The notes under the pieces: generated by a model
Databases searched by the model: none
Told to the model about the DNA's origin: nothing
Seen by the model: only the letters and a program-made list of their open reading frames with translations
Shown: positions 23,332 to 62,774 of the stretch, piece after piece
Layout: each line of letters opens with the position of its first letter
Position numbering within the stretch: position 1 is the stretch's first letter
Made by a program: the position numbers and the translations under genes
Virus record (IMG/VR): IMGVR_UViG_3300027804_000038
Location: 32,001-96,000 of that record
Length of the DNA stretch: 64,000 bases
Source: a virus
Lineage: Duplodnaviria > Caudoviricetes
Direction: 5' to 3' (one strand)

Positions 23332-23508
23332 ATGGCACAAACATCTGCTGGAACTTATACATATGTTGTAATAAATGCTTCTTCAGGAACATGTGGAAGT
23401 TGTACTTCAACATTACAACCTCACCCAACATATTCTGATTTAACAGGTGGTACAGTAGTACAGTTGCAAGCAATCACCTTAGGTGGATTTAACGGATTAA
23501 ACAATTAA
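23332..23508 (+). CDS. 58-aa Thr/Gly-rich small protein, probably structural (missed by the ORF track)
   Basis: MAQTSAGTYTYVVINASSGTCGSCTSTLQPHPTYSDLTGGTVVQLQAITLGGFNGLNN*; TATTTAT box upstream; fills an intergenic gap. Confidence 0.75.
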   Translation: MAQTSAGTYTYVVINASSGTCGSCTSTLQPHPTYSDLTGGTVVQLQAITLGGFNGLNN

Positions 23509-27256: not shown

Positions 27257-29011
27257 ATGTCATTAACTAAAGAACAGGTTTTATTGGAATACGGTAGATG
27301 TTTGAAGAGTACTCCTTATGCCTTAAAAACATACTTACAAACATACGACAATACAGTTTCAAAATACGTGCCTTTAGAATTATTTCCTGACCAAGTTAGT
27401 CTGTTAAATGACTATGAGAATTTTAATGAAAATATTGCTTTAAAATATCGACAGGCGGGTGTATCTACTGTAACCGCGGCTTGGGCATCTAAGAAACTTG
27501 TTTTTGCTAAAAAAACTAAACCTGAAAAAATCCTAATAATTGCAAACAAACTTGATACTGCGGTTGAAATGGCTAACAAAATTAGAGGATTTACAGAACA
27601 ATGGCCATCATGGACTGGAGTTGGATTTTCCGCCGAAAAGAATTCACAAAGACATTTTAAACTAACAAATGGATGTGAAGTTAAAGCGGTTGCAACTTCT
27701 AAGGATGCCCTAAGAGGATATACTCCAACAATATTGGTCTTTGACGAGGCTGCTTATATTGAAGCGGATTCTGATTTTTGGGCGGCTTGTATGGCGTCAT
27801 TATCTACAGGTGGTAAAGTTATAGTAATATCCACACCAAACGGATACGACCCAATTTATTATGAAATATATGACCAAGCATTAAGAAACATGAATGAATT
27901 TAAAATTTCTGAAATGGTTTGGTTTAAAGACCCAAGATATACTAAAGATTTAAAATTAATTAAAGTTAACGATATAATACATTATTATTTAAATAGAGAA
28001 GAATATTCCGATATTGATATTATTGATTATGCTGAGACCCCATTTAAAGAAAGAAATTTTGATGATGTTAAACAATTAATTTACCAAGGGTACAAACCAA
28101 CATCAAGTTGGTATGAGTCTATGGTAAAAAAATTGAAGTACGATAAAAGAAAAGTAAACCAAGAATTAGAATGTCAATTTTTAGGTTCAGGAGATAACGT
28201 ATTTGACTCTGAAGTTATTTCAAGAATTAGAGAAAGTATGATTTGTGAACCCAAAAATAAATTTATGGGTGGTTCATTATGGATATGGAAAGAACCTGTG
28301 ATTGGACATAAGTATATTATGGGTGTTGACGTTAGTAGGGGTGACAGTGAAGATTTTTCTTGTATACAGATAATTGATTTTGATGCAAGAGAACAAGTTT
28401 TAGAATACGTTGGGAAAATCCCACCAGATACTTTAGCTGAGGTTTGTTATAAATGGGGGAATATGTATTCCGCATTTATTGTAATTGATATTACAGGTGG
28501 TATGGGGGTAACAACTTCTCGTAAATTACAAGAATTAGGGTATAGAGACTTATATGTTGATGGAGTTGACTATCAAAATAAATGGAAATACGACCCAAAA
28601 TCACAAGACAAAATTCCAGGAATTAATTTTAATAATAAAAGAGTACAAATAATTGCATCATTTGAGGAATCTATGAGGCACGACTTTAAAATATACTCTA
28701 CAAGGTTATTAAATGAAATGTCAACTTTTGTATATATCAATGGTAGACCTGACCACCAAAAAGGTCATCACGATGATTTAATCATGGGACTATCAATGTG
28801 TAATTATGTTTCTGAATCATCATTCACTTCAATATCTAAAGTAACGCAACATACTAAAGCAATGATTGAGTCATGGCAAGTATCGACAAATAAAACAAGT
28901 CATTCGCAATATTTTAATCCAACTATTTCGAGTGGTGAACAAATAAAAAATAATCAACCAACCCGTAACGATTATATGCAATATGGGTGGTTATTTGGAG
29001 GACGTAGATAA
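27257..29011 (+). CDS. terL: Terminase large subunit (T4 gp17-like)
   Basis: KYRQAGVST ATP motif, LVFDEAA Walker B, ISTPNG, nuclease MGVDVSRG..D, HHDDLIM. Confidence 0.95.
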   Translation: MSLTKEQVLLEYGRCLKSTPYALKTYLQTYDNTVSKYVPLELFPDQVSLLNDYENFNENIALKYRQAGVSTVTAAWASKKLVFAKKTKPEKILIIANKLDTAVEMANKIRGFTEQWPSWTGVGFSAEKNSQRHFKLTNGCEVKAVATSKDALRGYTPTILVFDEAAYIEADSDFWAACMASLSTGGKVIVISTPNGYDPIYYEIYDQALRNMNEFKISEMVWFKDPRYTKDLKLIKVNDIIHYYLNREEYSDIDIIDYAETPFKERNFDDVKQLIYQGYKPTSSWYESMVKKLKYDKRKVNQELECQFLGSGDNVFDSEVISRIRESMICEPKNKFMGGSLWIWKEPVIGHKYIMGVDVSRGDSEDFSCIQIIDFDAREQVLEYVGKIPPDTLAEVCYKWGNMYSAFIVIDITGGMGVTTSRKLQELGYRDLYVDGVDYQNKWKYDPKSQDKIPGINFNNKRVQIIASFEESMRHDFKIYSTRLLNEMSTFVYINGRPDHQKGHHDDLIMGLSMCNYVSESSFTSISKVTQHTKAMIESWQVSTNKTSHSQYFNPTISSGEQIKNNQPTRNDYMQYGWLFGGRR

Positions 29012-31662
29012 TGGGTTTAGAGAAAAGACAAAAAACCGATAGAATATATGATGGTTCAAAATTAATTGTTGACGGTAACGGAGTTAAAACCGCAACCGCA
29101 AAAAAAGCTTTCGATAATATTAGAAAAAATATTAAATCTGAACCTAATATTATTATGGTTAGTCCAACTCCATCTGTGACCCAAACTCCAACTCCAAGTA
29201 TTACCCCAACAAATACTCCAACCATATCAAATACGGCAACAAATACACCAACACCAAGTATTACCGCAACACAAACAAATACGCCTACAGTAACACCGAC
29301 ACCAAGTATTACTAATACACAAACACCTACTCAGACAAATACACAGACTCCTACTAATACTATAACTCCAACACCAACTAATACTATAACTCCAACACCA
29401 ACTCAAACAAATACGCAAACCCCAACTGCGAGTATTACTCCATCACCTACTCAAACGCCTAATTGTATTTGTTATGGATTTACAAATAACACTAAAGGAA
29501 CTTTACCTCTATACGTTATTGATTGTAACGGTATACTTAGAACTTCTTTTGTACCTGTTGGGTTTACTAAAGAAGGGTGTGTCTTAAACAGTCAATATAC
29601 CGCAACTAGTTTAACAATATCAACAAACGGACCTTGTGTTGCTGGTTCATGTAGTTATACACCAACCCCAACTCCGACAATAACTACAACACCAACGAAT
29701 ACCCCTACAAATACACTAACACCTACACAAACTCCTACAAATACTGCAACAATGACACTAACTCCAACAAGTACTATAACTCCAACCCCAACCCCAACCC
29801 AGAATTGTCAGTGTTATTATATAGATAATCCAAGTGCCTCTCCAAATGGTGCGAATTATATTGATTGTTCAGGAAATACAATCATTGATTACCCAATACC
29901 TGCATTATCCCAAGTTTATTTATGTTCGTCAACAACACCAATTTTTACAGTGGATGTTGATGGAAAAATTACCGCAACCCCAATAAACTTATGTAATGAA
30001 GGATGTCCTTCTGAACCCATACCACCATTTTTTAGAATTCAAAATATTGAAGGTACCAATCCGACCATAGTTAGATTAAATACGATTACAGGCTCAACAT
30101 TTGACATAGACTGGGGAGATTTGTCAACAAGTGCTGTTACAATATCTTCGGCAACATATACAACATTTACTTATCCTCACACATATGCATCATCAGTTTA
30201 TACTGCAACTTTTGATGATTTCATGGACGGTGCAGTTATAAGTACTGGTAAAATCAAAGAAATAAGTATACATTCAATTTCAAATATCGTTGAGAATGAA
30301 TATACTTTTAGTGCATTTACTGCAACTACGACTTTAACTATCTCATCATCAACCTTAACAGATTTTAGTTCATCTTTACCAAATAGTTTAGTGAATCTTT
30401 ATTTTTATACTGTAAATTCACCTGGAGCAAATTCATTTATATTCAATCCTTCAACCGATTTGGCAACACTACCATCATTTTCTAATTTAATTATAAGAAA
30501 TTCTGATATATCTGCATTTACCTATGATTTCCAATCAAGTACATCATTAAATGAATTACAATTATATGCGGATACTTTATTAACAACATGTAATTTTACC
30601 GCACCTATAGGAACTAGTTTTACAAAGTTGTGGGTTCAAGGATGTAGTTTATTAAAAAATATCAGCATGCCATTTGGGTTTACATTTAGTTTAGGGTTAA
30701 TTGACTTAGTTGTACCTCAAAATAGTTTAAGTGCTTGGACATATAATCTACCACCGTCAACTGAAACTGCTTATTTAAATCAAAATACTTTATCGGCATT
30801 TACAATAGATTTAAGTAGTAATACAAATTTAGAAATATTACATCTATATAATAACTCATTAAGTGCATTTACTAATACTGTATCAGGATGTACTTCTTTA
30901 ACACAACTAAGATTAGAAAGTAATCGATTAACAACATTACCACCAATATTCCCTAACAATGTAAGATATATAAATTTTAGTCAAAATAGGGTTACTGGAT
31001 ATACTTCTAATTTCCCGTCATCGCTAACTGATTTCATAGGATTTGGTCAAACTACGGGACAACAAGTAATTAATTCATTTGATGTTGAGGTTAGTGGGGC
31101 AACTAATTTAGATACCTTTGACTTATCAAGGGTGAGTCTAACCGCTTGGACAAAAACATTTAGTAGCTCAGCATTAACTCTTAACTTGGCTTATAATAAT
31201 TTAACAAGTTTTGATTTTAGTTTATGTTCAGGAGCAACTGATGTTACTTTAACTGAGAATCCATTATCTTCAGGATTAACTAATTTGTCAGGACTAACAG
31301 TTATTGACACTTTGAATGTTAATAATACCTCAATACCATCGGATTCGGCACTAATCCAAGGAGATTTCCCTTCGTCATTAGTTGCATTATATTGTCAAGA
31401 TGTTAATACTATAACGTCATGGGATATTTCCTTTTCTGGAGCGTCTACAAATCTAAAATATATCTATTTTAGATTTACACCATTAAATCAAGCATCAACT
31501 AATTTTATATTAAATGACTTGGCTAATAATAATACCGCGATTAATGGTATATTAAGATTAGATGGGGCTGGAGGACCAGCATCACCGACTGGAGGAGTGT
31601 TAAACCCTGATTATATTACGTTAACATCCGCACCTAGAAATTGGTTAGTCTTTATAAATTAA
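29011..31662 (+). CDS. 883-aa surface protein: short N-terminal anchor, two Thr/Pro stalks, two Cys modules, PKD-like domain, LRR solenoid
   Basis: TPTPTNT repeats; CxCY..N....Y.DC.G modules; FDIDWGD; LxxLxLxxNxL repeats (LEILHLYNNSL, LTQLRLESNRL, LTLNLAYNNL). Confidence 0.85.
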   Translation: MGLEKRQKTDRIYDGSKLIVDGNGVKTATAKKAFDNIRKNIKSEPNIIMVSPTPSVTQTPTPSITPTNTPTISNTATNTPTPSITATQTNTPTVTPTPSITNTQTPTQTNTQTPTNTITPTPTNTITPTPTQTNTQTPTASITPSPTQTPNCICYGFTNNTKGTLPLYVIDCNGILRTSFVPVGFTKEGCVLNSQYTATSLTISTNGPCVAGSCSYTPTPTPTITTTPTNTPTNTLTPTQTPTNTATMTLTPTSTITPTPTPTQNCQCYYIDNPSASPNGANYIDCSGNTIIDYPIPALSQVYLCSSTTPIFTVDVDGKITATPINLCNEGCPSEPIPPFFRIQNIEGTNPTIVRLNTITGSTFDIDWGDLSTSAVTISSATYTTFTYPHTYASSVYTATFDDFMDGAVISTGKIKEISIHSISNIVENEYTFSAFTATTTLTISSSTLTDFSSSLPNSLVNLYFYTVNSPGANSFIFNPSTDLATLPSFSNLIIRNSDISAFTYDFQSSTSLNELQLYADTLLTTCNFTAPIGTSFTKLWVQGCSLLKNISMPFGFTFSLGLIDLVVPQNSLSAWTYNLPPSTETAYLNQNTLSAFTIDLSSNTNLEILHLYNNSLSAFTNTVSGCTSLTQLRLESNRLTTLPPIFPNNVRYINFSQNRVTGYTSNFPSSLTDFIGFGQTTGQQVINSFDVEVSGATNLDTFDLSRVSLTAWTKTFSSSALTLNLAYNNLTSFDFSLCSGATDVTLTENPLSSGLTNLSGLTVIDTLNVNNTSIPSDSALIQGDFPSSLVALYCQDVNTITSWDISFSGASTNLKYIYFRFTPLNQASTNFILNDLANNNTAINGILRLDGAGGPASPTGGVLNPDYITLTSAPRNWLVFIN
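29161..29460 (+). repeat. Thr/Pro low-complexity stalk 1
   Basis: About 100 codons of degenerate TP(T/S)xT repeats, including a near-exact repeat of actaatactataactccaacacca. Confidence 0.9.
29659..29799 (+). repeat. Thr/Pro low-complexity stalk 2
   Basis: TPTPTPTITTTPTNTPTNT... about 47 codons. Confidence 0.9.
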
Positions 31663-37497: not shown

Positions 37498-39327
37498 ATG
37501 GGAGCATTATTAGAATCAGGTCTTGTTGGTAACATTGGTCTTAAGCACCTTAAAGTTATCAAAGAAGATACTATTAACAAATGGGACAAATTAGGGTTCC
37601 TTGAAGGTCTTCGTGGCCACCTAAAAGAAAACGTAGCTCAGTTGTATGAAAACCAAGCTTCGCACTTAATAAACGAATCAACTTCAACTGCGGACTCAGG
37701 TTCGTTTGAAACCGTTGTATTCCCAATCATTCGTCGTGTATTCTCTAAGCTTTTGGCTAACGAGATTGTATCTGTACAGGCTATGAACTTACCTGTTGGT
37801 AAATTGTTCTACTTTGTACCACGTATCCAAGGATGGACAGGTGCAACTCCAGCAGTTGCTAATGGAAATCAAAATGGTCACTACGCACCATTCGGTTCAC
37901 CAAACGGTCCTGCATCAGTTAACGCTGGTTATGGTACAGACACAGGAGCTATCGCTAAGAACACTTACGATTTGTTCTATGAAGGTACTGAACCATCATT
38001 AGACCCACCAGGATTGTTTGACTACTCAAAAGGTCGTTATTCTTGGTTGTCTGCAGCAACTAACACTGTTGTTTGGAATACATCTGGTAATTTACAAGTT
38101 TCAGGATACGGTTCTGGCGAATATCGTAAGATATTGGTTGCAATGTCAGGTTTCTCTAACTCAGGTGCTGGTAAGATTATTGGTCCTGATGGACAAGAAA
38201 TGGATACTGAATCTTTCTTATCAGATTTAACAATCCTTCCAACTCAAGCATCTATCGGAGGATTAACATTCTCTACTACCACTCCATTATTATTCCGTGT
38301 AGTAACACAGAAATATGGACAAGGAATGGTACAGTACGGTTCATCAACAACAACTACTTGGCCAACTAACGGTAATGGTGGTACTTATTTTGATATTTGT
38401 ACACCAAACGGAGTTATCTATTTAGAAATTGATTTACAAGTACCTGCATGTATCGCTTGTGGTCAATCTACACCTGATGGATATAGTGGACTTACTTTCA
38501 CTTCTGCAGTATCTGCTACAACTGCTAGTAACCCATTCACGGCTTACTTTAAGCGTTATGAAGAATTAGAATTCGAAGACAGAATTGGTGAAGTTTCTTT
38601 TGATTTAGAATCAGTAACTGTTTCTGTGACTGAAAGAAAGTTAAGAGCACAATGGTCACCAGAACTTGCACAGGACGTTGCGGCATTCCACAACATTGAC
38701 GCTGAAGCTGAATTAACAGCTTTATTGTCTGAACAAGTGGCTGCTGAAATCGACCGTGAAATCTTACGTGACTTACGTAAAGGTGCAGCTTGGACATTAC
38801 GTTGGGATTACAACGGATGGAAGCGTCTGAATAACCAAGCAACTCCGTATACTCAAAAGGACTGGAATCAAACTCTTATCACTGCGATTAACCAAATCTC
38901 AGCTCAAATCCACAAGTCAACTCTTCGTGGTGGAGCTAACTGGATTGTAGTATCTTCTGAAATCTCTGCGATTTTCGATGACTTACAATACTTCCACGTT
39001 TCTAACGCAGCACCTGAGCAAGACCAGTACAACATGGGTATTGAGAGAATCGGTACATTGGCAGGTCGTTACCAAGTATATCGTGACCCATACTTCCCAC
39101 CAAACACTGTGTTGTTAGGTCACAAAGGTACATCGTTACTTGATACTGGTTACATCTACGCACCATACGTACCATTACAATTAACTCCAACAATGTACAA
39201 CCCATTCAACTTCACACCTATCAAAGGTATCATGACACGTTACGCTAAGAAGATGGTTAACAACCGTTTCTTCGGACGTATCATCGTTGATGGTGTTCGT
39301 ACGTTTGATTTGAGAGAATTGAGATAA
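37498..39327 (+). CDS. gp23: Major capsid protein (T4 gp23-like) with a large G/S/T-rich insertion
   Basis: VSVQAMNLPVG..FY, RKLRAQWSPELAQD, AEIDREIL, GYIYAPYVPL, GIMTRY; strong high-expression codon bias (TTC, AAC, ATC, CGT). Confidence 0.97.
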   Translation: MGALLESGLVGNIGLKHLKVIKEDTINKWDKLGFLEGLRGHLKENVAQLYENQASHLINESTSTADSGSFETVVFPIIRRVFSKLLANEIVSVQAMNLPVGKLFYFVPRIQGWTGATPAVANGNQNGHYAPFGSPNGPASVNAGYGTDTGAIAKNTYDLFYEGTEPSLDPPGLFDYSKGRYSWLSAATNTVVWNTSGNLQVSGYGSGEYRKILVAMSGFSNSGAGKIIGPDGQEMDTESFLSDLTILPTQASIGGLTFSTTTPLLFRVVTQKYGQGMVQYGSSTTTTWPTNGNGGTYFDICTPNGVIYLEIDLQVPACIACGQSTPDGYSGLTFTSAVSATTASNPFTAYFKRYEELEFEDRIGEVSFDLESVTVSVTERKLRAQWSPELAQDVAAFHNIDAEAELTALLSEQVAAEIDREILRDLRKGAAWTLRWDYNGWKRLNNQATPYTQKDWNQTLITAINQISAQIHKSTLRGGANWIVVSSEISAIFDDLQYFHVSNAAPEQDQYNMGIERIGTLAGRYQVYRDPYFPPNTVLLGHKGTSLLDTGYIYAPYVPLQLTPTMYNPFNFTPIKGIMTRYAKKMVNNRFFGRIIVDGVRTFDLRELR

Positions 39328-42213: not shown

Positions 42214-42717
42214 TTAAAAAGCAACATTTCCCTTTAATTCTTCACAAACATTATCTAAAAAGTTCTCAATCTCATGTTCTAACCCTTCATATGTCTCAAA
42301 CAAATTAATGCCTTCAGGGTCTTCAAAATTACATGTTGAGTAAGTCCCGTTTGGTTCACAATATATTTCCCCATAAAATTCATCATTATTTACGGTTAAA
42401 TAACCAGTGTGAACCATTTCGTTAGGATTATCTTCAGTAGATTCGTATTTAAAAGACATATTAACACCCCCAATTATATCAGAAAAAATATTTTCATAAT
42501 TGGTAACTTGTGAACGTGTAACTAATTCTTCATCATCTTTAAATTTACCAGTTTCGGAATAATGTATTAAATATTTCTTTTCTTTATCTGTTAAACCCTC
42601 AAATCCTACTCTATTTATTTTATCTAAAATAGAGTCAATTTTATCCATACTTTCATTAATAATATTATTAATTATTTTGATTAATTCCGATTCTGTTATT
42701 TGTATTTTTTTTCTCAT
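42214..42717 (-). CDS. Hypothetical protein with an IDSILDKI..G...LT..EK.YL motif (DUF6576-like)
   Basis: MRKKIQITESEL...INES N-terminus followed by the motif. Confidence 0.7.
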   Translation of the reverse strand: MRKKIQITESELIKIINNIINESMDKIDSILDKINRVGFEGLTDKEKKYLIHYSETGKFKDDEELVTRSQVTNYENIFSDIIGGVNMSFKYESTEDNPNEMVHTGYLTVNNDEFYGEIYCEPNGTYSTCNFEDPEGINLFETYEGLEHEIENFLDNVCEELKGNVAF

Positions 42718-44216
42718 TTTTTGTTAACTATTTGAAATTTAATTTGTCTTTTATAGGTTTCTGACGACCCATTTGATATGACCTTTAAGTCAATATAATA
42801 TTCATTAGGTATTTTGTCAGTAGTATCAAATATAAAATAAAATTGATTATCTGACCTATTTATTTCAGTCCAATCTTGTACTTGAACTTCAGTTTGGCCC
42901 TCTCTAACATATAGTCTATAATAAGCGTTTACATTAGACAATATCTCATTTGTACTATATGCTTTTTTAACTATAACGCCAACTTTTCTAATATCTGTAT
43001 TTAATATTTTTTCGTCTTGTTTAATACCATAAAAATCGAACCCATACAATATTGGGTCTTGACTCATTGTTGATATTTGTAAAGTATTATTATATGGTAA
43101 AAGTATTATAGTATTTGTTATATTACTTAGACTATTTCCATTGTATATTAAATTACTCCAAACGTCATATATCGTACATGGTACGTTTGTGTTACCTGTA
43201 ATTGCGGGTATTGTTACTTCATAAATCCCTTTTGATATTAGACAAGACGTTAGAGGTCCTTGTATAATACTATCTTCAGAGTCAATTATATTAACAGTTG
43301 GTGGGGTGTCTAAATTAACTAAATCACCGTCAATATATGAAAATAAATAAAGTTTATTTTCATTATTTGTCACAAAATAATTTCGATTATCTTTAATTAA
43401 ATCATTATATGATGTCTCTAAAAATGGTTCATAAAATGTTTGAGTATGCCTACTAAAAAAGGCAACTGCGTAATTTTCAGTCAACCCTGTTAAATTTTCA
43501 AGTTCAGGTGAAAAAGATATAATCCATCCCGTGTTACCAGTAGTACCACCACTTAAAATTGAGTTTATTTCATCCGTCATATCAAACTCAATATCTTCAT
43601 TACCAAATTCAAAGTGTTGAGTATCAACAATAGTTAACCCACTATAATTTACATTACCTGAATTTGTATTTGAATATATCCCATTTTGACTCCATCCTGA
43701 TATAGTTGTTGTTTGATACCAATTAGAGGGTCTCTGAGAGTAACTTTTATTTTCAGGTAGTAATATTGGAGTTATAAGTCCATTTGAAAAATTAGTTGTA
43801 TTTTGTACATCATAATAATCAGAACCTACTCCTTCATCCCAATATTGTGGATTACCAGTTGAACCCGAAATTTTAGGTATTCTGATTAAATGTAAATCAA
43901 AAGAAGTTGCTCTTAACCTCCCGTCTGACATTGAGGTATTAAGTAACTCAGTATCAAATGAAGAAGTGTTAGTCATTCTAAGTTTGTGAGTTATTCCACT
44001 AAATCCTGTACATCCTGTTGAAATAACTCCTGATGAAAATTTACTAACTAACTCGGTTAAATCTAAATCAAAAATAAACCTTGAGAAACCTTTTTGTGAT
44101 AGTACGTCATTTGCGGTACCAAAATACAATTCAGTATAAGGAGCCTTACCAGTATTTGTAAAACTATTATACAATAATGTATTATTTCTAGAAAAATATG
44201 AACGATGTATTGACAT
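42714..44216 (-). CDS. Putative baseplate/tail structural protein
   Basis: Start moved to MSIHRSYF at 44216; beta-rich, G/S/T/N-rich; next to the spike-like gene. Confidence 0.7.
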   Translation of the reverse strand: MSIHRSYFSRNNTLLYNSFTNTGKAPYTELYFGTANDVLSQKGFSRFIFDLDLTELVSKFSSGVISTGCTGFSGITHKLRMTNTSSFDTELLNTSMSDGRLRATSFDLHLIRIPKISGSTGNPQYWDEGVGSDYYDVQNTTNFSNGLITPILLPENKSYSQRPSNWYQTTTISGWSQNGIYSNTNSGNVNYSGLTIVDTQHFEFGNEDIEFDMTDEINSILSGGTTGNTGWIISFSPELENLTGLTENYAVAFFSRHTQTFYEPFLETSYNDLIKDNRNYFVTNNENKLYLFSYIDGDLVNLDTPPTVNIIDSEDSIIQGPLTSCLISKGIYEVTIPAITGNTNVPCTIYDVWSNLIYNGNSLSNITNTIILLPYNNTLQISTMSQDPILYGFDFYGIKQDEKILNTDIRKVGVIVKKAYSTNEILSNVNAYYRLYVREGQTEVQVQDWTEINRSDNQFYFIFDTTDKIPNEYYIDLKVISNGSSETYKRQIKFQIVNKK

Positions 44217-44236
44217 TATCTTTTTATAGATAAATA

Positions 44237-45856
44237 TCAATTAATTCGAATGTTTTGATTAAGAACTTTAGAATCAAAATTTTGGAATTCAATCTCTATT
44301 TCCGCAGACGTGGTTCCCTGACTAGTTACGGGAGACGGAGGTAACATATGGTAAGGGTGAGAATGGGTAATTAAGAACTTAACCACTAAATTTAAAAACT
44401 CTTTTAATTTTTCTCCTCTAACCATAGGTTCAGTATTCGGTATTATTTCGTCAAAAATTTTACTTTGAGTTATTCCATAAACACTATCTGAACCTAAATT
44501 AATTTTTTGTTTACCAGGTATCACAGAGTCATGAGAAAGAAAAATCATCTTATTACTACCCCCAACAGAAACACTATTTTTTTTCAATACTGTTTCATAA
44601 GGGTTTGTTGATATTGTTATATTTTTTTTAGATATTCCAAATTTATTGAATTGAGAAACTAGTCCACAACCCTTTTCTGATAGAAAATATGAAATAATAT
44701 TAGCCTTTGAGAATTTAACTAATGAAGTTATTTTTAATAAATTTGTTTTAATTGTTAAATTTTCAGGTGACGTTATTTCAGACATTATGTTCCTCAAATT
44801 TTTAGATGGTCGATAATAAAATGGAAATCTTTGTCCTGAAAATTGAGAGAGTTTCGGTATATAAGGTGACTTTATATCAACTGCTCCTGTATTTAAACCC
44901 TCAATAACTGAATTAATTAAAAATGTTACTCCTGATTGAGGAATCCCAACAAATTGGTAAGTAAATATTGGTGTTGTAACACTAGACGGTAACTCAGTGT
45001 TTTCCTTAAATTCATTATTTTTAACTGAGCTTGATGCTGGTATATCGTATATATAAATTGCGCCAGTGTAAGAATTTGCATTGTTATCTAAACCTTGTAT
45101 AATATCATATTCAATTAATTTAGATAATGGGGACTCATCGGTTTCACTAATTTGTGCGTTCTCTGAAGGTTGATTTATAACATCCTTACTAAAATATGAA
45201 ATCTGATAAAAACCTCGTTTTTCATTAACGTACGGAGTCGTGTTTGGAGTTATTTCTGATGTTTTTCCAGCTCTAATTAATAGTTCGTTTGGTTTTATAA
45301 TTATATCTGAAGAACCTTTACCGTATATTGCAATATCGGACAATTTATTTGGAACTCCAACTTCTGCAAATATTCCTTTTATCTTTTGATTTCTATATTC
45401 AGAAGTAGGTGTTTTTAAATTTGGTGACCCTTGAATATTCGAACCTTGAGCTGTTTGGGATAAACTTTGTGAGTAGTCCTCAGAACTAATATTAAATGGA
45501 TTAGATTTTGGACCAGGAATATAAAATTGCTCTTTCCTACCTGTATTTTTTTCAGGGTTAGAATACATCAACCATACTAATTCACCAACCTCAGGTACCA
45601 TTGTTATTGAAAACGGAATTAGAGGTAGAAAAACAAATGGGTCTAAATTTGTAAATTTAAATTCGTCTAAAATATCGCTACCGTCTTCATTAACAATTCC
45701 TTTGTCTTTATAAGAATCTAATATCTGTTGCACACTTTCGTGGTCAGGGAAAACTCTAATCCTGCTCAGAACTTGATAATCATTATTATCAATAACTCTT
45801 CCCGTAAATATTATTTTACTATGGTCAGAAACGTAATCAACAATTTTATCCCGCAT
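44237..45856 (-). CDS. Baseplate central spike (gp5/gpV-like)
   Basis: OB-fold-like N-terminus GRVIDNND...SRIRV...VPEVGELV; C-terminal THSHP HxH metal tip motif. Confidence 0.65.
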   Translation of the reverse strand: MRDKIVDYVSDHSKIIFTGRVIDNNDYQVLSRIRVFPDHESVQQILDSYKDKGIVNEDGSDILDEFKFTNLDPFVFLPLIPFSITMVPEVGELVWLMYSNPEKNTGRKEQFYIPGPKSNPFNISSEDYSQSLSQTAQGSNIQGSPNLKTPTSEYRNQKIKGIFAEVGVPNKLSDIAIYGKGSSDIIIKPNELLIRAGKTSEITPNTTPYVNEKRGFYQISYFSKDVINQPSENAQISETDESPLSKLIEYDIIQGLDNNANSYTGAIYIYDIPASSSVKNNEFKENTELPSSVTTPIFTYQFVGIPQSGVTFLINSVIEGLNTGAVDIKSPYIPKLSQFSGQRFPFYYRPSKNLRNIMSEITSPENLTIKTNLLKITSLVKFSKANIISYFLSEKGCGLVSQFNKFGISKKNITISTNPYETVLKKNSVSVGGSNKMIFLSHDSVIPGKQKINLGSDSVYGITQSKIFDEIIPNTEPMVRGEKLKEFLNLVVKFLITHSHPYHMLPPSPVTSQGTTSAEIEIEFQNFDSKVLNQNIRIN

Positions 45857-48331: not shown

Positions 48332-49084
48332 TTATTCATCATCTTCAGACGGTGAAATTAACTTTAAGTATATTTTTTTATATTTTTTCATAGACGACCT
48401 AATTTCTTTAGTTGACATGTTAGTAATTTCCCTAAGAGACAATAAAATAACATTTTTGTTAAATTTATTATTATCACTAGCTGGAAAAATAGTTTCGTAG
48501 TTTTCAAAAATATCACTTAAAGCTAAACCTAATTTATACTCGTTTTCGTTTAAATCTTCATCTTCTAAAACTTCTTTTATTAAATTAATTAAAGTTGGTA
48601 TTATATGACTATCGTCTTCTGGTTCTATATCCAGATAATAAACCATATCTTTATTGTTTTCTAAGTCACTTGAAATGTCTTCGTATGATATTTTTCTATT
48701 GAATTCTTTTTGGTCTTTTAATATTTGACCCATTAAATAGTTTTTACATATTGTACCAAAATACGAATATGCCTTTTTTTCTTTACTAGGTACAAATTTA
48801 TCTACCTTAGTCATTAAAAAAGAATGAGTGTCTGTATGGATTTCGTTAAAATCCATGTCTTTTCTGTACAATTTGTACCTTCTTATAATTGATGAAATCA
48901 TTTTATCTAATGGATATCTCAAATATTCATTATATATTTTATTTTTTTCATCAAATGTAGTGGCGGTCAGAAACATTCTAACCGCCATTTCTTCTCTAAC
49001 ATCGAAATAATTCTCGTTTTGAGATTTCTTTGTTCTTTTTCCTTCGGAAACATTTATAGTGATAGAAGATGCAGTTATTAACAT
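48332..49084 (-). CDS. Phage late sigma-factor-like protein (T4 gp55-like)
   Basis: ENYF.....AV..F, KMISSIIRRYK, KF.PSK.KKAYSYFGTICKNYL region-2-like motif. Confidence 0.7.
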   Translation of the reverse strand: MLITASSITINVSEGKRTKKSQNENYFDVREEMAVRMFLTATTFDEKNKIYNEYLRYPLDKMISSIIRRYKLYRKDMDFNEIHTDTHSFLMTKVDKFVPSKEKKAYSYFGTICKNYLMGQILKDQKEFNRKISYEDISSDLENNKDMVYYLDIEPEDDSHIIPTLINLIKEVLEDEDLNENEYKLGLALSDIFENYETIFPASDNNKFNKNVILLSLREITNMSTKEIRSSMKKYKKIYLKLISPSEDDE

Positions 49085-49887
49085 TAAGCATTTTCTAAAT
49101 ATTTTATATTTCTATCATCAACAAAATAATATTCTTTTTTTGCGGTAGAAATCCAAAACTTCACCTCGTCCTCCGATAATCTAGTATCCCCATTTTTGTA
49201 TTCCCAAAATAAAGATTCATCTCTCATATTAACGTGTTTGTATCCAATTCTTGGGATTGTCATAATTTTTACTGAATTGTATGTCATTCTTAAAAGAAAT
49301 TCATAAACAAATGTTAGTTTCATGCTTGATTTAAATCCCCCAAAATTTTCTAAAACTTCTTTTTTAATAACCATTCCTGCGGTTTGGAAATTTTGATAAT
49401 TATGTAACATATCATTTGTCAATATTCCCATTTCTTGTGCGAAATTGGCTGCAAAGGTTGCTTCATTTGTGAATCCCGCAAAAGAAAGTTTGTTATCAAC
49501 ATCAATTACAATTGGTAAAAATGCTTCTGAATCTGGATATATGTCAGAATATTTTTTTACATTTTTAAACCATATTTGAGAATATTCATCATCAAACTCA
49601 AAAAATGAAATCCATTCTGATTTAGATTCTTTAATACCTAAATTTATTTGTGACGAATAATTTGGTTCACCATCGTACAACACTTTATTTACTTCTAAAC
49701 CTGTAAAATCAAAAGAGTTTAAAAAATTAACTAAAGTTTCTTCATTAGTGTGAACAATAACTAATTCTTTAGGTTTTACCTGTTGAGTCCTAATAGAGTC
49801 TATTGCTTTTTTAAAAAAATCTTCAAAATCTTTTACCTTAGAAGATTTAATAGGTAGTATTACTGATAAATTTAAAATGTTTTCCAT
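49084..49887 (-). CDS. GT-A (GT2-like) glycosyltransferase
   Basis: LSVILPI...SIRTQ...ELVIV; WISFFEFDDEY; stop overlaps the sigma start. Confidence 0.75.
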   Translation of the reverse strand: MENILNLSVILPIKSSKVKDFEDFFKKAIDSIRTQQVKPKELVIVHTNEETLVNFLNSFDFTGLEVNKVLYDGEPNYSSQINLGIKESKSEWISFFEFDDEYSQIWFKNVKKYSDIYPDSEAFLPIVIDVDNKLSFAGFTNEATFAANFAQEMGILTNDMLHNYQNFQTAGMVIKKEVLENFGGFKSSMKLTFVYEFLLRMTYNSVKIMTIPRIGYKHVNMRDESLFWEYKNGDTRLSEDEVKFWISTAKKEYYFVDDRNIKYLENA

Positions 49888-49892
49888 ATTTT

Positions 49893-50954
49893 TTACGATT
49901 CAATTGTTTGGTGTTTATTCAATTCTCCCTCAAATATTTTTGTCCTAATCTCACTATAATGATTAAATGTTTTAACTACTTCTTCTTTAAAGTTATTCTC
50001 GTTTGAGAACTTTTCTACGGTCTCGTAACCCCCTTCGTATAATTTATCAGAAATATTATCCTCTAACCAATTCTGTATAAAATCCGCAACCAAGTCTGGT
50101 AATCTAATAATATCTTGAACCCAAATACCGTTATTTTCATTTATCCAAGAAGGTACCATTTTTGGAAGTTTACCCATTACAGGAACACCCGATTTCATAG
50201 ATTCTAGTGGGTAGGTTCCAAATGAACTGATGTCGTCAATCCAAATAGATAACATACAATCTTTAAGAGTATTTGCAAATTGTTCTTGAGAAACTCCCAT
50301 CATATCTCTAAATGATATCCATCTATATTGAGGAAATTTTACATAGAATAATTTAATAAAATTAATTGAATCTCTATGTTCTCTTGAATGAATTGCAATA
50401 ATTGGCTTTGCAGGATATGTAGGCTTTTCAAACACATTTGAAATTGTTGGTTCAATAACATCAATTGACGTATTTCTCATTACTGATGAAATATATTCTT
50501 TCATTTTTTCAGATGTAGTAATACATTTTGTAAATCCAAATTGACCCCATGTTTGTCCAGGTTGCAAAGTTTCAAAAATGTAATCATATGATTGACATAA
50601 TACTATCTTAGCACAAGGAAGATTAACTAATTGAGGCATTACATATCCTAAAATTTCAGGAACAATTATCGTATCCTCTGGAGATATTGCCAAATTCTTA
50701 CCCTCAACAGAGATGTGTTCGAGATTTTCCATGTATTTTGAACCTAACCAATCCTGTACTCCAAAATAATCGGGTTTTTCATGTAAAATAATTGCATTAT
50801 GACCATTTTCTTTTAATGATAAAGCCATGTCATAAATGTATTTAATAGACGCTTTAGCATTACCCTTAGTGTCTTGTACAAAAAAATAAATTCTAGCTGA
50901 TTTATTTTTTAAATTTTCAATAGATTGTTCTAATTTTTTTACTATTTCGCTCAT
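49893..50954 (-). CDS. GT-B (GT4-like) glycosyltransferase
   Basis: FGTYPLESMKSGVPVMG (ExxxxGxPV) signature. Confidence 0.75.
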   Translation of the reverse strand: MSEIVKKLEQSIENLKNKSARIYFFVQDTKGNAKASIKYIYDMALSLKENGHNAIILHEKPDYFGVQDWLGSKYMENLEHISVEGKNLAISPEDTIIVPEILGYVMPQLVNLPCAKIVLCQSYDYIFETLQPGQTWGQFGFTKCITTSEKMKEYISSVMRNTSIDVIEPTISNVFEKPTYPAKPIIAIHSREHRDSINFIKLFYVKFPQYRWISFRDMMGVSQEQFANTLKDCMLSIWIDDISSFGTYPLESMKSGVPVMGKLPKMVPSWINENNGIWVQDIIRLPDLVADFIQNWLEDNISDKLYEGGYETVEKFSNENNFKEEVVKTFNHYSEIRTKIFEGELNKHQTIES

Positions 50955-52603: not shown

Positions 52604-53596
52604 TTAATCATTATTATTTTTTTTGTTGTCATAGTATACCATCCAGTAGTCAATCATTTCATCTAACATTGACTCAAACGTATACTCATGAGTCCATCCA
52701 GTTGCGTTTACAAGTTTAGAAGAATCTCCTTTTAGATTATTTAATTCTTCAGGTCTCAAAAATTTTTCATCTTGTTTAATATATTCAGACCAATGTAGAC
52801 CCAATCTAGTGAAAACATAATTTACAAGTTCCTTTACAGAATGAGAAACTCCTGTCGCACAAACAAAATCATCTGGATTATCTAATTGTAATATTTCCCA
52901 CATTGCTTTTACATAATCTTTAGCGTGCCCCCAATCACGAGTTGCGTCTAAATTACCTAATTTTAATTCGTTTGATAACCCCAATTTAATTTTAACTGCC
53001 TCCTTACATACTTTATTTGTTACAAAGTTTGTCCCCCTTCTTGGTGATTCGTGATTAAATAATATTCCGTTCGAAATAAACATACCATATGAATTTCTAT
53101 AATTACGACATATATTGTAACTAAAAACTTTTGCACATCCATATGGAGATACTGGATTCATCGGTGTTGTTTCTCTTTGGAATCCGTCAGAATCAATTGA
53201 ATTACCAAACATTTCTGATGATGACGCTTGATATATTTTAGTATCAGGTTTAACTAATTTAACGGCTTCAAGTAAATTTAATGTACCTAATCCTGTAACA
53301 TTAGATGTATAAATTGGCTGGTCAAATGAAATCCTAACGTGAGATTGTGCCGCTAAATTATAAATCTCATCAGGTTTTATTTTTTGAATTACTGAAATTA
53401 ATGATGATATGTCAGTCAAATCTGCATAATGAAGTTTTACTTCATTATAAACTTCATTTAATCTAGAAGTTTGATTTTCAGAGACTGAGTTTCTTTTTAG
53501 AGTACCGTGAACCTCATAACCCTTTTCTAATAAAAATTCAGATAAATATGAACCATCCTGACCATTAATTCCTGTAATAAGTGCAATTTTATTCAT
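52604..53596 (-). CDS. gmd: GDP-mannose 4,6-dehydratase
   Basis: ALITGINGQDGSYL, YNLAAQSHV, YQASSSEMFG, SPYGCAK, NHESPRRG, RDWGHAKDY. Confidence 0.97.
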   Translation of the reverse strand: MNKIALITGINGQDGSYLSEFLLEKGYEVHGTLKRNSVSENQTSRLNEVYNEVKLHYADLTDISSLISVIQKIKPDEIYNLAAQSHVRISFDQPIYTSNVTGLGTLNLLEAVKLVKPDTKIYQASSSEMFGNSIDSDGFQRETTPMNPVSPYGCAKVFSYNICRNYRNSYGMFISNGILFNHESPRRGTNFVTNKVCKEAVKIKLGLSNELKLGNLDATRDWGHAKDYVKAMWEILQLDNPDDFVCATGVSHSVKELVNYVFTRLGLHWSEYIKQDEKFLRPEELNNLKGDSSKLVNATGWTHEYTFESMLDEMIDYWMVYYDNKKNNND

Positions 53597-53994
53597 TATT
53601 TTTTTGTGTTTTTAATTTTTAAAAATTCATCAAAGTCAAGAATGTAGTCATTTTTATCATACTCTGTTGAACAGATAACTAATAAAACGGAGTCTTCCGA
53701 TAAAAATTTTTGGGAGTCCCATATTAGTTTATCAACTAATACAAATTCACCCTTTCTTATTGTTGTTATTTTTTCTGATATACCGTCATGTAAAATAACT
53801 TCAATGGTTCCTGATACACATATTAGAATTTGAATAGTTTCAAAATGAGAGTGATTACCTCTAATTGTATTTTTTGGGACATTACTAACGGTAAAAACTC
53901 TTTGTGGTTTAAATGGGAAATGACTAAAGTCAACAGGTATTAAATCACCTCTTAAATCGCTAAATATACTTAATTTATTTATTTTTTTTTCCAT
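53596..53994 (-). CDS. fdtA: Sugar 3,4-ketoisomerase (FdtA/QdtA cupin)
   Basis: DLRGDL, QRVF.V, RGNHSH, Q.LIC.SG, EYDKNDYI.DFDEF. Confidence 0.85.
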   Translation of the reverse strand: MEKKINKLSIFSDLRGDLIPVDFSHFPFKPQRVFTVSNVPKNTIRGNHSHFETIQILICVSGTIEVILHDGISEKITTIRKGEFVLVDKLIWDSQKFLSEDSVLLVICSTEYDKNDYILDFDEFLKIKNTKK

Positions 53995-54905
53995 TCTTTA
54001 ATTAAACTAATGATATGGTTAATATCAAAATTTGTCAATTCTTCATGGAAAGGTATAGATACTGTCGTAAGTGAATCAATTTCAGATAAAGGACAGTTTG
54101 AATCTTTTTTAAAATATACAGGGTGGTTATGCAACGATTCATAGTGTATTCCACAAATCACACCATTTTGACGCATAAATGAAATAAATTCGTTTCTATT
54201 ATTTACTGAAATTCGATATAGGTGATTGCTAATATTATCATAACCTAATTCTTTGTTATAAATTTCTCTAATTTCATTTAATTTAGATAATTTGTTTTCG
54301 TATTTTTTAAAGTTTCTAAATGCAATATCACATTGTATACTGTTCATGTACATTTTATAACCAGGAAATTTAATTTTCCTTTCCCAGTTATTGTCAGAAT
54401 ATGACATTCCATTTAATGCCATCTCTTTTAATTTTACTATTTTATCTAAATCATTAGATACTATCATACCACCATCACAAGACCCTACTGGTTTAGTTGG
54501 GTAAAAACTAAATATCATTAAATCTTGCGGATTACATTCATTAATAAATTGATTTTTTTCTAGTTTTTGCGCGGAGTCTATTACTTTATAATCCCCAAAA
54601 TCATGTAGTAAATACGAGTTTCCCACCCAATTTATATCATCATAAAATTCATAATTATTGCCTGAGGTTATTATGGCGTTAACAACAACTGGAGGTATAA
54701 TACTTGGAATTTTAACTTTTAAATTTTTATACTGTAAAAAAAGTAAAAAAATAGCACTTGTTGCACTATTAAAACTTACCCCATGCTTAGCCCCAACGTA
54801 TTCACAAATTGAAGACTCGAATTCGGTGACAATATTATCATGTAATAAATTACTATAATTTGAAGTGTCAATTGTGTGGTTGTTTATGTTAAATAAATTT
54901 ATCAT
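53979..54905 (-). CDS. DegT/DnrJ/EryC1 sugar aminotransferase
   Basis: FE..I.EYVGAK..V..NSATSA, IDSAQ, FSFYPTKPVGSCDGG (PLP Lys). Confidence 0.85.
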   Translation of the reverse strand: MINLFNINNHTIDTSNYSNLLHDNIVTEFESSICEYVGAKHGVSFNSATSAIFLLFLQYKNLKVKIPSIIPPVVVNAIITSGNNYEFYDDINWVGNSYLLHDFGDYKVIDSAQKLEKNQFINECNPQDLMIFSFYPTKPVGSCDGGMIVSNDLDKIVKLKEMALNGMSYSDNNWERKIKFPGYKMYMNSIQCDIAFRNFKKYENKLSKLNEIREIYNKELGYDNISNHLYRISVNNRNEFISFMRQNGVICGIHYESLHNHPVYFKKDSNCPLSEIDSLTTVSIPFHEELTNFDINHIISLIKEWKKK

Positions 54906-55702
54906 ATTAATTTATAAAATTTATAGTCATTATTACCCCCATTTCTATATAGTTCTTTCCAAAAAACATCCCTGAAGTAGTCGCTATTATTTTTGTAATT
55001 TACAACCCAATCGTAACTATGAATTATTTTTTTATTTTTATTACCGCAAAAAGATGCGGATATTACAAAAGTCGATGGAGATGAAATAACATATTTACAT
55101 TCTGAAATTTTAGTAAAATCTTCTTTAAAATTAGACACATTTCCAGTAGAATAACCAATTTTTAAAAAATTTAAATACTCAATAGTTTTAATATAGGATT
55201 CTAAATTTGTGTCATCAGAAAATAAAATATAATTATAGTCTTCTTCATTTATTTCAGACCTAACAAAATCTATACTATTTTTATAATATTCAAAAGGTAA
55301 TATTGATTTAGGGTCCCATTGATGAAAGTCTCCACCTCTAAAATGAATTGCCACATTTTTTTTGGTTAAATCTATATTCTTATATTTAAAAATATCGTAG
55401 GTAGACAAAGTAGAAAATTCATAAAAATACTCTAATAATGAAGGTTCTAAATAATATATTTTATCATTATCTAATGATACCTCAAATTTATTTTTTATTA
55501 GAAAATTAACATCTAATATTTCATATTGTTCTTTATTATATTCTCTTGTTTTATTTCCAACCTCAAATAACTCTAGTCCATTAAATTCAGTAAAAAAATA
55601 ATCTTGATTATAAAATTTAGATATCTGTATTAAATTATTTAATCCTATTATTTTATTACCAAATTGGTACCCATTCCAATTATTAAAATTAGTAATAATC
55701 AT
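54902..55702 (-). CDS. GT11 (alpha-1,2-fucosyltransferase-like) glycosyltransferase
   Basis: FGN.I, AIHFRGGDF, YY..SI, FSDD, ISSPSTF. Confidence 0.75.
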   Translation of the reverse strand: MIITNFNNWNGYQFGNKIIGLNNLIQISKFYNQDYFFTEFNGLELFEVGNKTREYNKEQYEILDVNFLIKNKFEVSLDNDKIYYLEPSLLEYFYEFSTLSTYDIFKYKNIDLTKKNVAIHFRGGDFHQWDPKSILPFEYYKNSIDFVRSEINEEDYNYILFSDDTNLESYIKTIEYLNFLKIGYSTGNVSNFKEDFTKISECKYVISSPSTFVISASFCGNKNKKIIHSYDWVVNYKNNSDYFRDVFWKELYRNGGNNDYKFYKLI

Positions 55703-55703
55703 A

Positions 55704-56177
55704 TTAGTATTTTATTTTAAATTTTGACATAGTATCCACAGATTCTAATAGTTCTAAAAATTTTAAAGCTTTTTTATATTCAGGTCTAAAAAAATCATGT
55801 ATAAATACAATAGTATTTTCATTACCTAAAAGATTACAGATTGACGCACATGATACTCTAGCTCTACCATCTATTAAAATAACATCAAAAGGGGCGTAAT
55901 TTAGTGGTGAATTAACATATGTATAAAACTCTTCATAAGAACCGTCATCTCCACCTTCGGTATAATCTAAATCAGGTGCGGAGTATATTAAAGTACAATT
56001 ATTTGGTTTTTTTTTAGATATATCCTTATACCAATTTTCTTGATGCTCAACTGAGACTATTGTTTTACACCTATTGGCAATTTCTATTGTAGAATACCCA
56101 CTTCCATACTCCAAAACTTTTTTTGTTTCATCAATGTGGGACATAAAAAAAAATTCTTCAGATTTGTTAGCGAACAT
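55704..56177 (-). CDS. SAM-dependent methyltransferase
   Basis: VLEYGSGYST, SVEHQENW, DVILIDGRAR. Confidence 0.8.
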   Translation of the reverse strand: MFANKSEEFFFMSHIDETKKVLEYGSGYSTIEIANRCKTIVSVEHQENWYKDISKKKPNNCTLIYSAPDLDYTEGGDDGSYEEFYTYVNSPLNYAPFDVILIDGRARVSCASICNLLGNENTIVFIHDFFRPEYKKALKFLELLESVDTMSKFKIKY

Positions 56178-56180
56178 AAT

Positions 56181-56819
56181 TTACAGTAAATTTTTTTTAA
56201 CATAAAGAGCGTCACCCCAACCTCCGCCATGATATTCATGAGTCATTGTTCTTATAAAACCATGTTCACTTAAAGATTCATCCATTTCATTAATCAAATG
56301 GCATCCGTCATACATATGTATTGTGTTTATTTCAGTGTATATAAAATCCATATTTTTTAAAAACTCGCCCATTGATAATATCACATTTAAGTCAGCTCCC
56401 TGAACGTCAACATTCATAAAATTAAAATCATCAATTTTAATATAGTTTTCAATTAGTAATGTATCCATCCTTTTTGTTACCATTTCAATTTGGTCAACAT
56501 AAACAACATCTGAAAATTTATTTTTATGTTCTTTTAAATCTAAAATAGAAGATGATTGGCCGTTATTACTTATATTGAATTTTACTTTTTTTTCAGAATC
56601 GTAAATTACTTCATTAATTGTAATAATATTTTCATTACCTAAAAATTTATTTTTTAAATTACCATATAATTTTGGATTACCCTCAACCCAAATAATTTTA
56701 TTAATACCTATTTCATTATAGTCGTCATATTCTTCAGCTTCGTGAGCTCCAACATGTATAATCCCTTTAATTGGTATATTTTCGTATTTTGTTTTAATTT
56801 CTTTAATCTTAATAAACAT
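56181..56819 (-). CDS. FkbM-family methyltransferase
   Basis: IHVGAH, WVEGNP, MNVDVQGADL, IYTE, WGDALY. Confidence 0.9.
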   Translation of the reverse strand: MFIKIKEIKTKYENIPIKGIIHVGAHEAEEYDDYNEIGINKIIWVEGNPKLYGNLKNKFLGNENIITINEVIYDSEKKVKFNISNNGQSSSILDLKEHKNKFSDVVYVDQIEMVTKRMDTLLIENYIKIDDFNFMNVDVQGADLNVILSMGEFLKNMDFIYTEINTIHMYDGCHLINEMDESLSEHGFIRTMTHEYHGGGWGDALYVKKNLL

Positions 56820-56820
56820 A

Positions 56821-57414
56821 TTATACTCTTTCTATTAATATTGATTTACCAAACTCACTATCTAATTCTTCAATAATTCTATGCTCAGACAATAAATTTT
56901 TAAACTCTTCTTCGGAAATAAATGACCTAACAGTGGTTAAATTACCATATGTATTGTATTCATTAATTTTACCTTCTTTTGAACAATATTGTCTATGAAT
57001 TATTAAATATTTTTTAGTGTTTTTTAATATCTGACTTAACACAGGTATTGGTTCTGGCAATTCAGATAAAAAACTATTACATAATAATATATCGTATTTT
57101 TTAAAAAAAGTATAGTCAAAACTATATGCGTCAAATTCAAAATATTCTAAATTTGGGTTAACTTTTTTCGCAACATCTTCAATAATATGAGGTAAATCAA
57201 ATCCGCTATAATTTAACTTGCTATAAACCCTCCCGACTTCTCCAGCCCCACATCCTATGTCCGCAATATTATCACAGTTGCATTTATTTATTAGATTATT
57301 AAGATATGGAAAATGAGCAGCATTTTCTAAACGACCCCATCCATTTAAACCCATAGCACCTCTAACCATTTCGTTAGGTAATATATCAGTATTATACCAA
57401 GCAGTTTTTTTCAT
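56821..57414 (-). CDS. SAM-dependent methyltransferase
   Basis: IADIGCGAG, GFDL motifs. Confidence 0.75.
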   Translation of the reverse strand: MKKTAWYNTDILPNEMVRGAMGLNGWGRLENAAHFPYLNNLINKCNCDNIADIGCGAGEVGRVYSKLNYSGFDLPHIIEDVAKKVNPNLEYFEFDAYSFDYTFFKKYDILLCNSFLSELPEPIPVLSQILKNTKKYLIIHRQYCSKEGKINEYNTYGNLTTVRSFISEEEFKNLLSEHRIIEELDSEFGKSILIERV

Positions 57415-57423
57415 AGTTTTTAA

Positions 57424-60974: not shown

Positions 60975-60975
60975 T

Positions 60976-61875: not shown

Positions 61876-61888
61876 GTTTAATCATTAT

Positions 61889-62770: not shown

Positions 62771-62774
62771 TATT

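Follow-up and report, generated by a model that had tools for sequence, protein, structure and literature searches.

Virion proteins encoded in a 64,000-nucleotide window of the IMG/VR phage record IMGVR_UViG_3300027804_000038 (bases 32,001-96,000 of 293,850 bp) carry the tetrapeptide (S/T)-(G/A)-x-T well beyond expectation. The motif had been noticed as a ladder of 17 copies in open reading frame (ORF) 29011, a protein with leucine-rich repeats (LRRs), and the original prediction took it for a surface-restricted acceptor site through which adjacent phage glycosyltransferases decorate the particle. The observation was confirmed and extends well beyond ORF 29011; the motif is a genuine, ordered signal at the protein level. 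The interpretation was partly supported: with the gene content taken into account, glycosylation is the simplest candidate, and on sequence grounds we tentatively favor reading the motif as an acceptor or recognition site for a phage-encoded modification, with a glycosylation sequon as the best candidate. The motif was scored as [ST][GA].T, expected counts were obtained by residue shuffling, and positions are those of the window unless marked genome or G000.

The window has a G+C content of ~28-31% and encodes a T4-type terminase, a portal, and a gp23-like capsid protein, as identified with Pfam. The nearest capsid of a cultured phage, Flavobacterium phage immuto, is only ~41% identical, and the source is an uncultured, T4-like jumbo phage from a lake, its host probably a member of the Flavobacteriia. 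In being large, aquatic, T4-related, and predicted to infect Bacteroidota, it resembles the 'moraphages', whose predicted hosts are Bacteroidota/Flavobacteriia and which carry several core glycosyltransferase families of unknown target (PMC12619734). Unlike here, no sequence motif in virion proteins was reported for that group (PMC12619734).

Across the whole genome, 228 copies of the motif were found versus 93 expected, with seven proteins enriched at p<1e-4. Copies were concentrated in about a dozen large proteins, mostly not paralogues. A tail-spike-like virion protein held 34 copies against 6.4 expected, and further enriched proteins included a SprB/Hoc-like protein, a PHROG 'virion structural protein', and the sheath. 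In agreement with the earlier remark that enzymes and internal proteins contain very few copies, the terminase, portal, and prohead protease each had none, and the non-structural arms of the genome (G000 0-50 kb and 210-294 kb) held 15 copies versus 24 expected. This deficit, along with an odds ratio below one in the sister clade described below, may point to mild avoidance of the motif outside virion proteins, an effect that is statistically weak.

An unbiased enumeration of all gapped triplets placed SA.T, SG.T, and TG.T at the top once TP-linker patterns were set aside, with SA.T the most enriched form, which rules out a post-hoc choice of motif. The reversed motif, four permutations, and every single-position relaxation gave observed/expected ratios of 0.85-1.05, and [ST][GA].S gave 0.95-1.2, that is, Ser at position 4 was not enriched; Thr at this position was the most constrained residue of the motif. 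Positions 1 and 4 were coupled, whereby Thr two residues after Gly or Ala was commoner when Ser or Thr preceded (odds ratio 3.07, p=1e-33). The same odds ratio was 2.5 in a complete relative, G027, 1.15 in T4, 1.13 in phiKZ, and 0.75 in the sister clade. With a hydrophobic residue before the motif the excess was 4.1-fold, and with hydrophobic residues on both sides 5.0-fold, while a charged residue at x gave only 1.36-fold and Pro at x no excess; the frequent x residues were G, N, S, T, and D. Acidic residues were not preferred before the motif ([DE]-[ST]-[GA]-x-T, 7 observed versus 10 expected), which bears out the earlier view that it is distinct from the Bacteroidota host sequon D-(S/T)-(A/I/L/V/M/T) and rules the latter out as its source.

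The excess persisted under shuffling in 12-residue windows, and global and local shuffles together rule out composition as its cause. Enrichment was limited to the coding frame (2.46, versus 0.76-1.12 in the remaining five frames) and codon usage at the motif was ordinary, which excludes a DNA word or codon effect. Internal duplication is ruled out by the 220 distinct sequence contexts among the 228 copies, and paralogy by the enriched proteins being mostly unrelated.

For comparison, observed/expected ratios were determined in other phages and in bacterial adhesins. These were 1.15 for T4, 1.23 for phiKZ, 1.36 for RM378, 1.47 for Flavobacterium phage immuto, 1.48 for P-SSM2, 1.06 for a 120-kb stretch of LR756508, and 1.07 for Portibacter SprB-type adhesins (39,000 residues). 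The P-SSM2 value was due almost wholly to one collagen-like (GPT)n protein. The motif is therefore not general to phage structural proteins or Bacteroidota surface proteins, and these ratios rule out a general trait of beta-rich phage proteins or Bacteroidota adhesins. In the relative G001, a 4766-aa protein (168785-183085) with long collagen-like (G-S/T-S)n tracts dominates Ser/Thr/Gly counts and has to be left out of such statistics.

Besides ORF 29011, the following motif-bearing proteins lie in the window:

23332..23508, plus strand: 58-aa ORF with 2 copies (SAGT, TGGT)
37498..39327, plus strand: gp23-like major capsid protein, 609 aa (Pfam Gp23 PF07068 at 1e-71)
37795..38547, plus strand: capsid insertion domain, about residues 100-350, Thr-rich and charge-poor
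42714..44240, minus strand: ORF 42714 (P0002), 508 aa, probable ATG start at 44216, with 8 copies in loops just before strands

Reported counts of eight copies in ORF 42714, four in the capsid insertion, and two in the 58-aa ORF were all reproduced. The four capsid copies (residues 114, 185, 330, and 339) fall in a lineage-specific insertion, and neither the capsid nor the sheath has a copy in the part alignable to T4 or immuto cores. Over 77 relatives, the capsid insertion held 300 copies versus 81.9 expected from the composition of the insertion only. Each of these capsids carried two to six copies, yet the sites were spread over 31 alignment columns; the sites have therefore turned over. 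In ORF 42714, seven of the eight sites were kept as a motif in relatives, S/T and G/A being exchanged and the third residue free to vary. The description of this protein as baseplate-like found no support, since ORF 42714 and its neighbors had no Pfam or PHROG match, its AlphaFold2 (AF2) model is a beta-sandwich array, and a Foldseek search of the model against the PDB returned generic Ig-like or macroglobulin domains only.

ORF 42714 has hundreds of relatives in IMG/VR, and a profile search resolved its family into 781 clusters at 50% identity. Full-length members carried 0-9 copies, with none in 36 of 110, including P0037, a motif-free member 48% identical to the query; some distant homologues have lost the neighboring gene order. 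In the 80 closest loci the motif was enriched 3.18-fold and the reversed motif 1.16-fold. By family, enrichment in these loci was 7.4-fold for the ORF 42714 family and 3.3-fold for the capsid, while the portal, the protease, and several small conserved proteins had zero or nearly zero copies and the terminase none. In the complete 310-kb relative G027, the genome-wide ratio was 2.41 with eight proteins at p<1e-4, part of the load resting on other orthologues, such as one with 13 copies versus 1 in the present genome.

In a sister clade (P0048-like), gene order is conserved and the capsid core matches the present one at 85-86% identity. Its orthologue of ORF 42714 has no copy versus eight here, its sheath none versus eight, and its 1531-aa orthologue of the present 1609-aa protein none versus six. 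Sister-clade capsids have mostly 0-1 copies and at most 2, versus 4 here. Summed over orthologous pairs, 34 copies here compare with 8 in the sister clade, and five sister-clade contigs, each 13-28% complete, together held 54 copies versus 79 expected (ratio 0.68). The capsid insertion is retained in the sister clade (L195, L203-L207, and L194 compared), where it has 3-6% Thr, 14-17% Asp+Glu, and 8-10% Lys+Arg, versus 12%, 6%, and 4%, respectively, in the present phage; in one lineage, an entire surface domain has either lost or gained charge. Given orthologues with the same folds and gene order but few or no copies, the motif is dispensable for these folds. Its concerted presence or absence over unlinked orthologues points to a common agent or physical pressure rather than to a local structural need.

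In ORF 29011 the motif follows the repeats of a solenoid. The protein and its parts are:

29011..31662, plus strand: ORF 29011 (P0001), 883 aa by translation, modeled by AF2 at pLDDT 85
29161..29490, plus strand: Thr/Pro-rich linker 1, about residues 51-160, mucin-like, with no [ST][GA]xT copy
29659..29802, plus strand: Thr/Pro-rich linker 2, about residues 217-264, from the translation
30268..31659, plus strand: LRR solenoid, about residues 420-883, from a register listing and DSSP of the AF2 model

In order from the N terminus, the protein has a stretch of ~50 aa, the two linkers, two small Cys-containing domains, a beta-sandwich, and the C-terminal solenoid. The 17 reported copies were recovered, all within residues 284-883, and shuffling of this region gave 2.2 copies, close to the earlier rough estimate of about two for the LRR region; none of 20,000 shuffles reached 17, and shuffling in 12-residue windows gave 2.5. 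About 15 LRRs could be placed in register as a tandem array with the core LxxLxLxxN/CxL. Pfam LRR_4 (23.2 bits) and LRR_8 (19.4 bits) both scored under the 27-bit cut-off. The AF2 model has 3-residue strands at the regular spacing of an LRR solenoid, and the Foldseek top 50 in the PDB were essentially all LRR proteins, the best being plant LRR receptor ectodomains and SHOC2. In the AF2 models of ORF 29011 and ORF 42714, copies are found in loops that lead straight into a beta-strand or in the short bridge after an LRR strand. Such a setting suits an acceptor of the 'strand-short loop-strand' kind described for TibC on TibA (PMC4358343) as well as a plain tight turn capped by Thr.

Seven copies occupy LRR positions 12-15, as LxxLxLxxNxL-S-A-(F/W/Y)-T (SAFT, SAWT, TGYT, TAWT), and four or five immediately precede the first Leu of the repeat that follows, as SG(C/A/L)T-x-L (SGCT, SGAT, SGLT). 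The claim that copies recur at the same position of successive repeats thus held, for two registers. As 11-12 of the 17 copies sit in these fixed registers, the ladder reflects a repeat consensus and not 17 independent events. Among 27 homologues (35-48% identity), 9-24 copies were present versus 2-4 expected, and at 10 of the 17 sites, 18 or more of 28 homologues retained a motif, S/T and G/A being freely exchanged. Megablast and tblastn searches of ORF 29011 against cultured phages gave no match, and a pattern scan of IMG/VR with its LRR half returned nothing.

Plant-specific LRRs have the consensus LxxLxLxxNxL(S/T)GxIP. ORF 29011 resembles them in placing (S/T)-(G/A) right after NxL, its positions 12-13 matching their (S/T)-G, and in a short second strand past the main LRR strand, and the plant structures FLS2, RGFR1, and BRI1 were its best Foldseek matches. 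The plant-type pattern therefore explains the register of about seven copies. The phage protein differs in having the hydrophobic residue one position earlier and Thr in place of Pro (SAFT, SGWT), in its second motif register before the next repeat, in its Thr/Pro linkers, and in its origin. These linkers flank the small Cys-containing domains and contain no [ST][GA]xT copy. Similar Thr/Pro linkers occur in three other proteins (G000 111041-111319, 168309-168530, and 182865-183203), and such linkers are a separate, more conventional candidate substrate for O-glycosylation.

Given the proposed involvement of adjacent glycosyltransferases (GTs), we scrutinized the glycan genes of the window and of its relatives:

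48332..49084, minus strand: sigma-factor-like gene (Atlas feature matches to phage sigma-factor clusters), kept in the loci of 62 relatives
49084..49887, minus strand: GT2 glycosyltransferase 'GT2a' (Pfam PF00535 at 1.5e-5)
49893..50954, minus strand: probable GT-B (GT4-like) glycosyltransferase, 353 aa, with no Pfam match and with Atlas feature matches to Glycos_transf_1 clusters as a lead only
52604..63976, minus strand: variable sugar cassette (Pfam)

As in mycobacteriophages, GT genes adjoin structural genes, namely the GT2, the probable GT-B, and the GTs of the cassette at 52.6-64 kb. The cassette includes a GDP-mannose 4,6-dehydratase, an FdtA-like isomerase, two DegT aminotransferases, and an SDR epimerase, together with FkbM and other methyltransferases, a PglD-like acetyltransferase, a GT-D-like protein (weak match), a GT2, and a GT8. 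From this content, the 12-kb cassette is predicted to make a deoxy-amino sugar that is methylated or acetylated. With G001 (G001 84-93 kb and 211-215 kb), which is 67% identical in ORF 42714, it shares no more than the GDP-mannose dehydratase and a few other enzymes. The variability of the cassette beside PhoH, with constant flanking genes, recalls O-antigen loci.

The sigma-GT2-GT-B-PhoH block was kept in essentially every relative with enough flank, the motif-poor clade included. Two motif-poor contigs, G006 and G009, are collinear with the present genome yet have neither the sugar cassette, between PhoH and the next conserved gene, nor a five-gene transferase island that lies outside the window at G000 105240-110257 and is 59-80% identical across relatives. 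In the same two contigs, a 716-aa protein with 15 copies is replaced by other proteins with 1-2 copies. Relatives with the island are G001, G002, G003, G015, G017, G027, G039, G040, G042, and G051. In some genomes it stands beside a conserved 975-aa gene, in others 16 to >200 kb from it, and it is tandemly duplicated in G040, G042, and G051. Variable sugar islands thus track the motif partly and not cleanly, and the link, drawn from one phylogenetic contrast with motif-poor contigs 13-28% complete, is suggestive.

A motif that is order-specific, coupled, limited to outer domains and to a lineage, and dispensable for the fold fits a recognition site read in trans. Under the reading that we favor, the tetrapeptide, with a hydrophobic residue usually before and often after it, would be a short linear recognition motif of this aquatic clade of T4-like jumbo phages, and outward-facing domains of many unrelated virion proteins would have gained it convergently. 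Soluble phage GTs would O-glycosylate the Thr (or the S/T) in the cytoplasm, and the particle would thereby gain a glycan coat. In ORF 29011, the motif would have been written into the LRR consensus at two registers, the solenoid displaying two ladders of potential sites. Three parts of this scheme are inferred: an enzyme as the selective agent, a glycan as the modification, and the identity of the modified residue. A more specific form, in which hydrophobic-(S/T)-(G/A)-x-T is a dedicated O-glycosylation sequon and an exchangeable cassette gives capsid, sheath, fibers, and LRR protein a strain-variable coat, strikes us as doubtful.

Several results weigh against a glycosylation sequon. The contrast between motif-rich and motif-poor phages is essentially one phylogenetic event, habitat may be a confounder, with one sister-clade contig coming from a TARA ocean sample, and loss of the motif accompanies a general shift from uncharged, Thr-rich to charged surfaces. 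In the models, the motif sits at loop-to-strand transitions with hydrophobic flanks and resembles a Gly-centered tight turn capped by Thr; at some sites Gly is kept in motif-free homologues (site 230: KGEE, DGNE). Most copies of the LRR protein are repeat-register positions, which makes the ladder weak independent evidence, and by LRR geometry the third residue of the first register (F, W, or Y) probably faces the core. As for the enzymes, the GT2/GT-B pair is present in the motif-poor clade too and therefore cannot by itself explain the motif. The five-gene island, missing from the collinear motif-poor contigs, was likewise not found in three motif-rich ones (G010, G014, and G030) and shifts position among relatives; as the motif's enzyme it was partly rejected. 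What survives of the claim about adjacent GTs is that cassette and island are both missing from the motif-poor contigs G006 and G009, which is the direction that the original prediction gave. The claim of surface restriction kept its observed part, the motif occurring on outer or lineage-specific domains and being absent from conserved cores and enzymes, while its acceptor function faces a serious structural rival.

That main rival, which we consider less likely, holds that the tetrapeptide is a favored uncharged tight turn, with the small residue at the turn, Thr starting the next strand, and Ser/Thr capping the previous one, and that no enzyme reads it. The lineage would have swapped charged surface residues for Ser, Thr, and Gly in response to fresh water, for lower stickiness, or for another physical reason. 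The position of copies in loops straight before beta-strands is as this would predict, as are their hydrophobic flanks, the commonness at x of G, N, S, T, and D, residues typical of two-residue hairpin turns, and the retention of Gly between charged flanks in some motif-free homologues. The compositional change of the capsid insertion, the plant-like register of (S/T)-G in the LRRs, and a mild baseline excess of 1.1-1.5 in most phages also agree with it. However, composition-corrected and locally shuffled tests still gave 5-10-fold enrichment in single proteins, and marginal preferences were ~1.0 where the joint pattern reached 2.5-fold and the odds ratio 3. Interchange of Gly and Ala at the same site argues against a turn that requires Gly, and the top rank of SA.T also counts against the rival. 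Beta-rich proteins of T4 and phiKZ and SprB-type adhesins do not share the excess, and capsid sites turn over while their number stays at two to six.

A reading in trans without a glycan, by phosphorylation, sulfation, docking of an assembly chaperone, or a Ser/Thr ligand-binding array (carbohydrate- or ice-binding-like on the LRR solenoid), is less probable still. Coupling, concerted presence or absence, and restriction to outer domains would apply to it equally, the regular LRR ladders recall the Thr arrays of beta-solenoid binding surfaces, and no single GT tracks the motif cleanly. However, no candidate kinase or chaperone was identified, glycan genes are unusually many among the late genes, and a binding array would be unexpected on capsid, sheath, and many unrelated proteins together. 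An artefact of composition bias, internal repeats, a DNA-level word, or post-hoc definition is barely credible: although the motif was defined after being seen, the copies in ORF 29011 are repeat-derived, and collagen-like repeats produce false excesses in P-SSM2 and the 4766-aa G001 protein, unbiased enumeration recovers it, permuted versions are flat, the signal is confined to the coding frame with ordinary codons and 220 contexts, and it recurs in 80 loci of relatives and in a complete relative, data that played no part in its definition.

To our knowledge, mycobacteriophages are the only phages whose particles have been shown by experiment to be glycosylated, and we know of no sequence rule for such glycosylation, nor of a short internal sequon in the mycobacteriophage case. 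Literature searches returned no report of an (S/T)-(G/A)-x-T virion motif. Mycobacteriophage virions are glycosylated by phage GTs (Freeman et al. 2023, as cited in PMC12619734 and PMC10877033). As those citing accounts present it, the likeness to the present phage lies in GT genes placed among structural genes and in capsid and tail proteins proposed as cytoplasmic substrates. In the same accounts, the glycans are at the C-termini of capsid and tail-tube subunits, whereas the candidates here are internal tetrapeptides over many proteins. The present phage is, moreover, a T4-like jumbo phage of a Gram-negative host, known from sequence alone.

General O-glycosylation in Bacteroidota shares with the present case the probable host phylum and a Ser/Thr followed by a small or aliphatic residue, but it has Asp before the Ser/Thr, a preference that was absent here. 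The Bacteroidota system is also periplasmic, whereas tailed-phage particles assemble in the cytoplasm. In the cytoplasm, TibC heptosylates Ser followed by Gly/Ala (N-S-G-G, T-S-A-A) in beta-helix turns (PMC4358343). Hyperglycosylation of TibA/AIDA-I by TibC/AAH, on a repeat solenoid with acceptors in turns between short strands, is comparable to hydrophobic-(S/T)-(G/A)-x-T ladders on an LRR solenoid (PMC4358343). TibC differs in modifying Ser, not Thr, on one beta-helix, whereas here many folds are involved and the strongest constraint is on Thr at position 4. The enzyme is of GT9 type; PF01075 had no match in the 294-kb genome at E<=0.01, while the same profile detected GT9-type enzymes in 4 of 14 control genomes.

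The analysis provides a sharply defined tetrapeptide, natural controls in the form of orthologues with zero versus eight copies, and candidate enzymes. With these, the question of what large aquatic phages do with their many glycosyltransferases becomes directly testable. Should the motif be a sequon, it would be the first one defined for the glycosylation of phage virions and would amount to the viral equivalent of a glycan shield, with evolutionary turnover of sites. Glycan coats of virions would then be predictable from metagenome sequence, with consequences for how phages adsorb, for their grazing and decay in lakes, and for the engineering of phage surfaces. If it is a structural turn instead, an unusual concerted rewriting of a whole virion surface would still need explanation.

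Three further genes were encountered in the relatives. Among its head genes, one motif-poor phage of the sister clade has a homologue of ribosomal protein S21 (PF01165; L195 16699-16893). On a 271-kb contig, a Cas12f1-like TNB (TnpB-type) protein lies near a distant ORF 42714 homologue (L200 5602-6753). On a TARA ocean contig, a Sulfotransfer_2 gene directly follows a homologue of ORF 42714 that lacks the motif, next to the capsid gene (L199 2625-3269).

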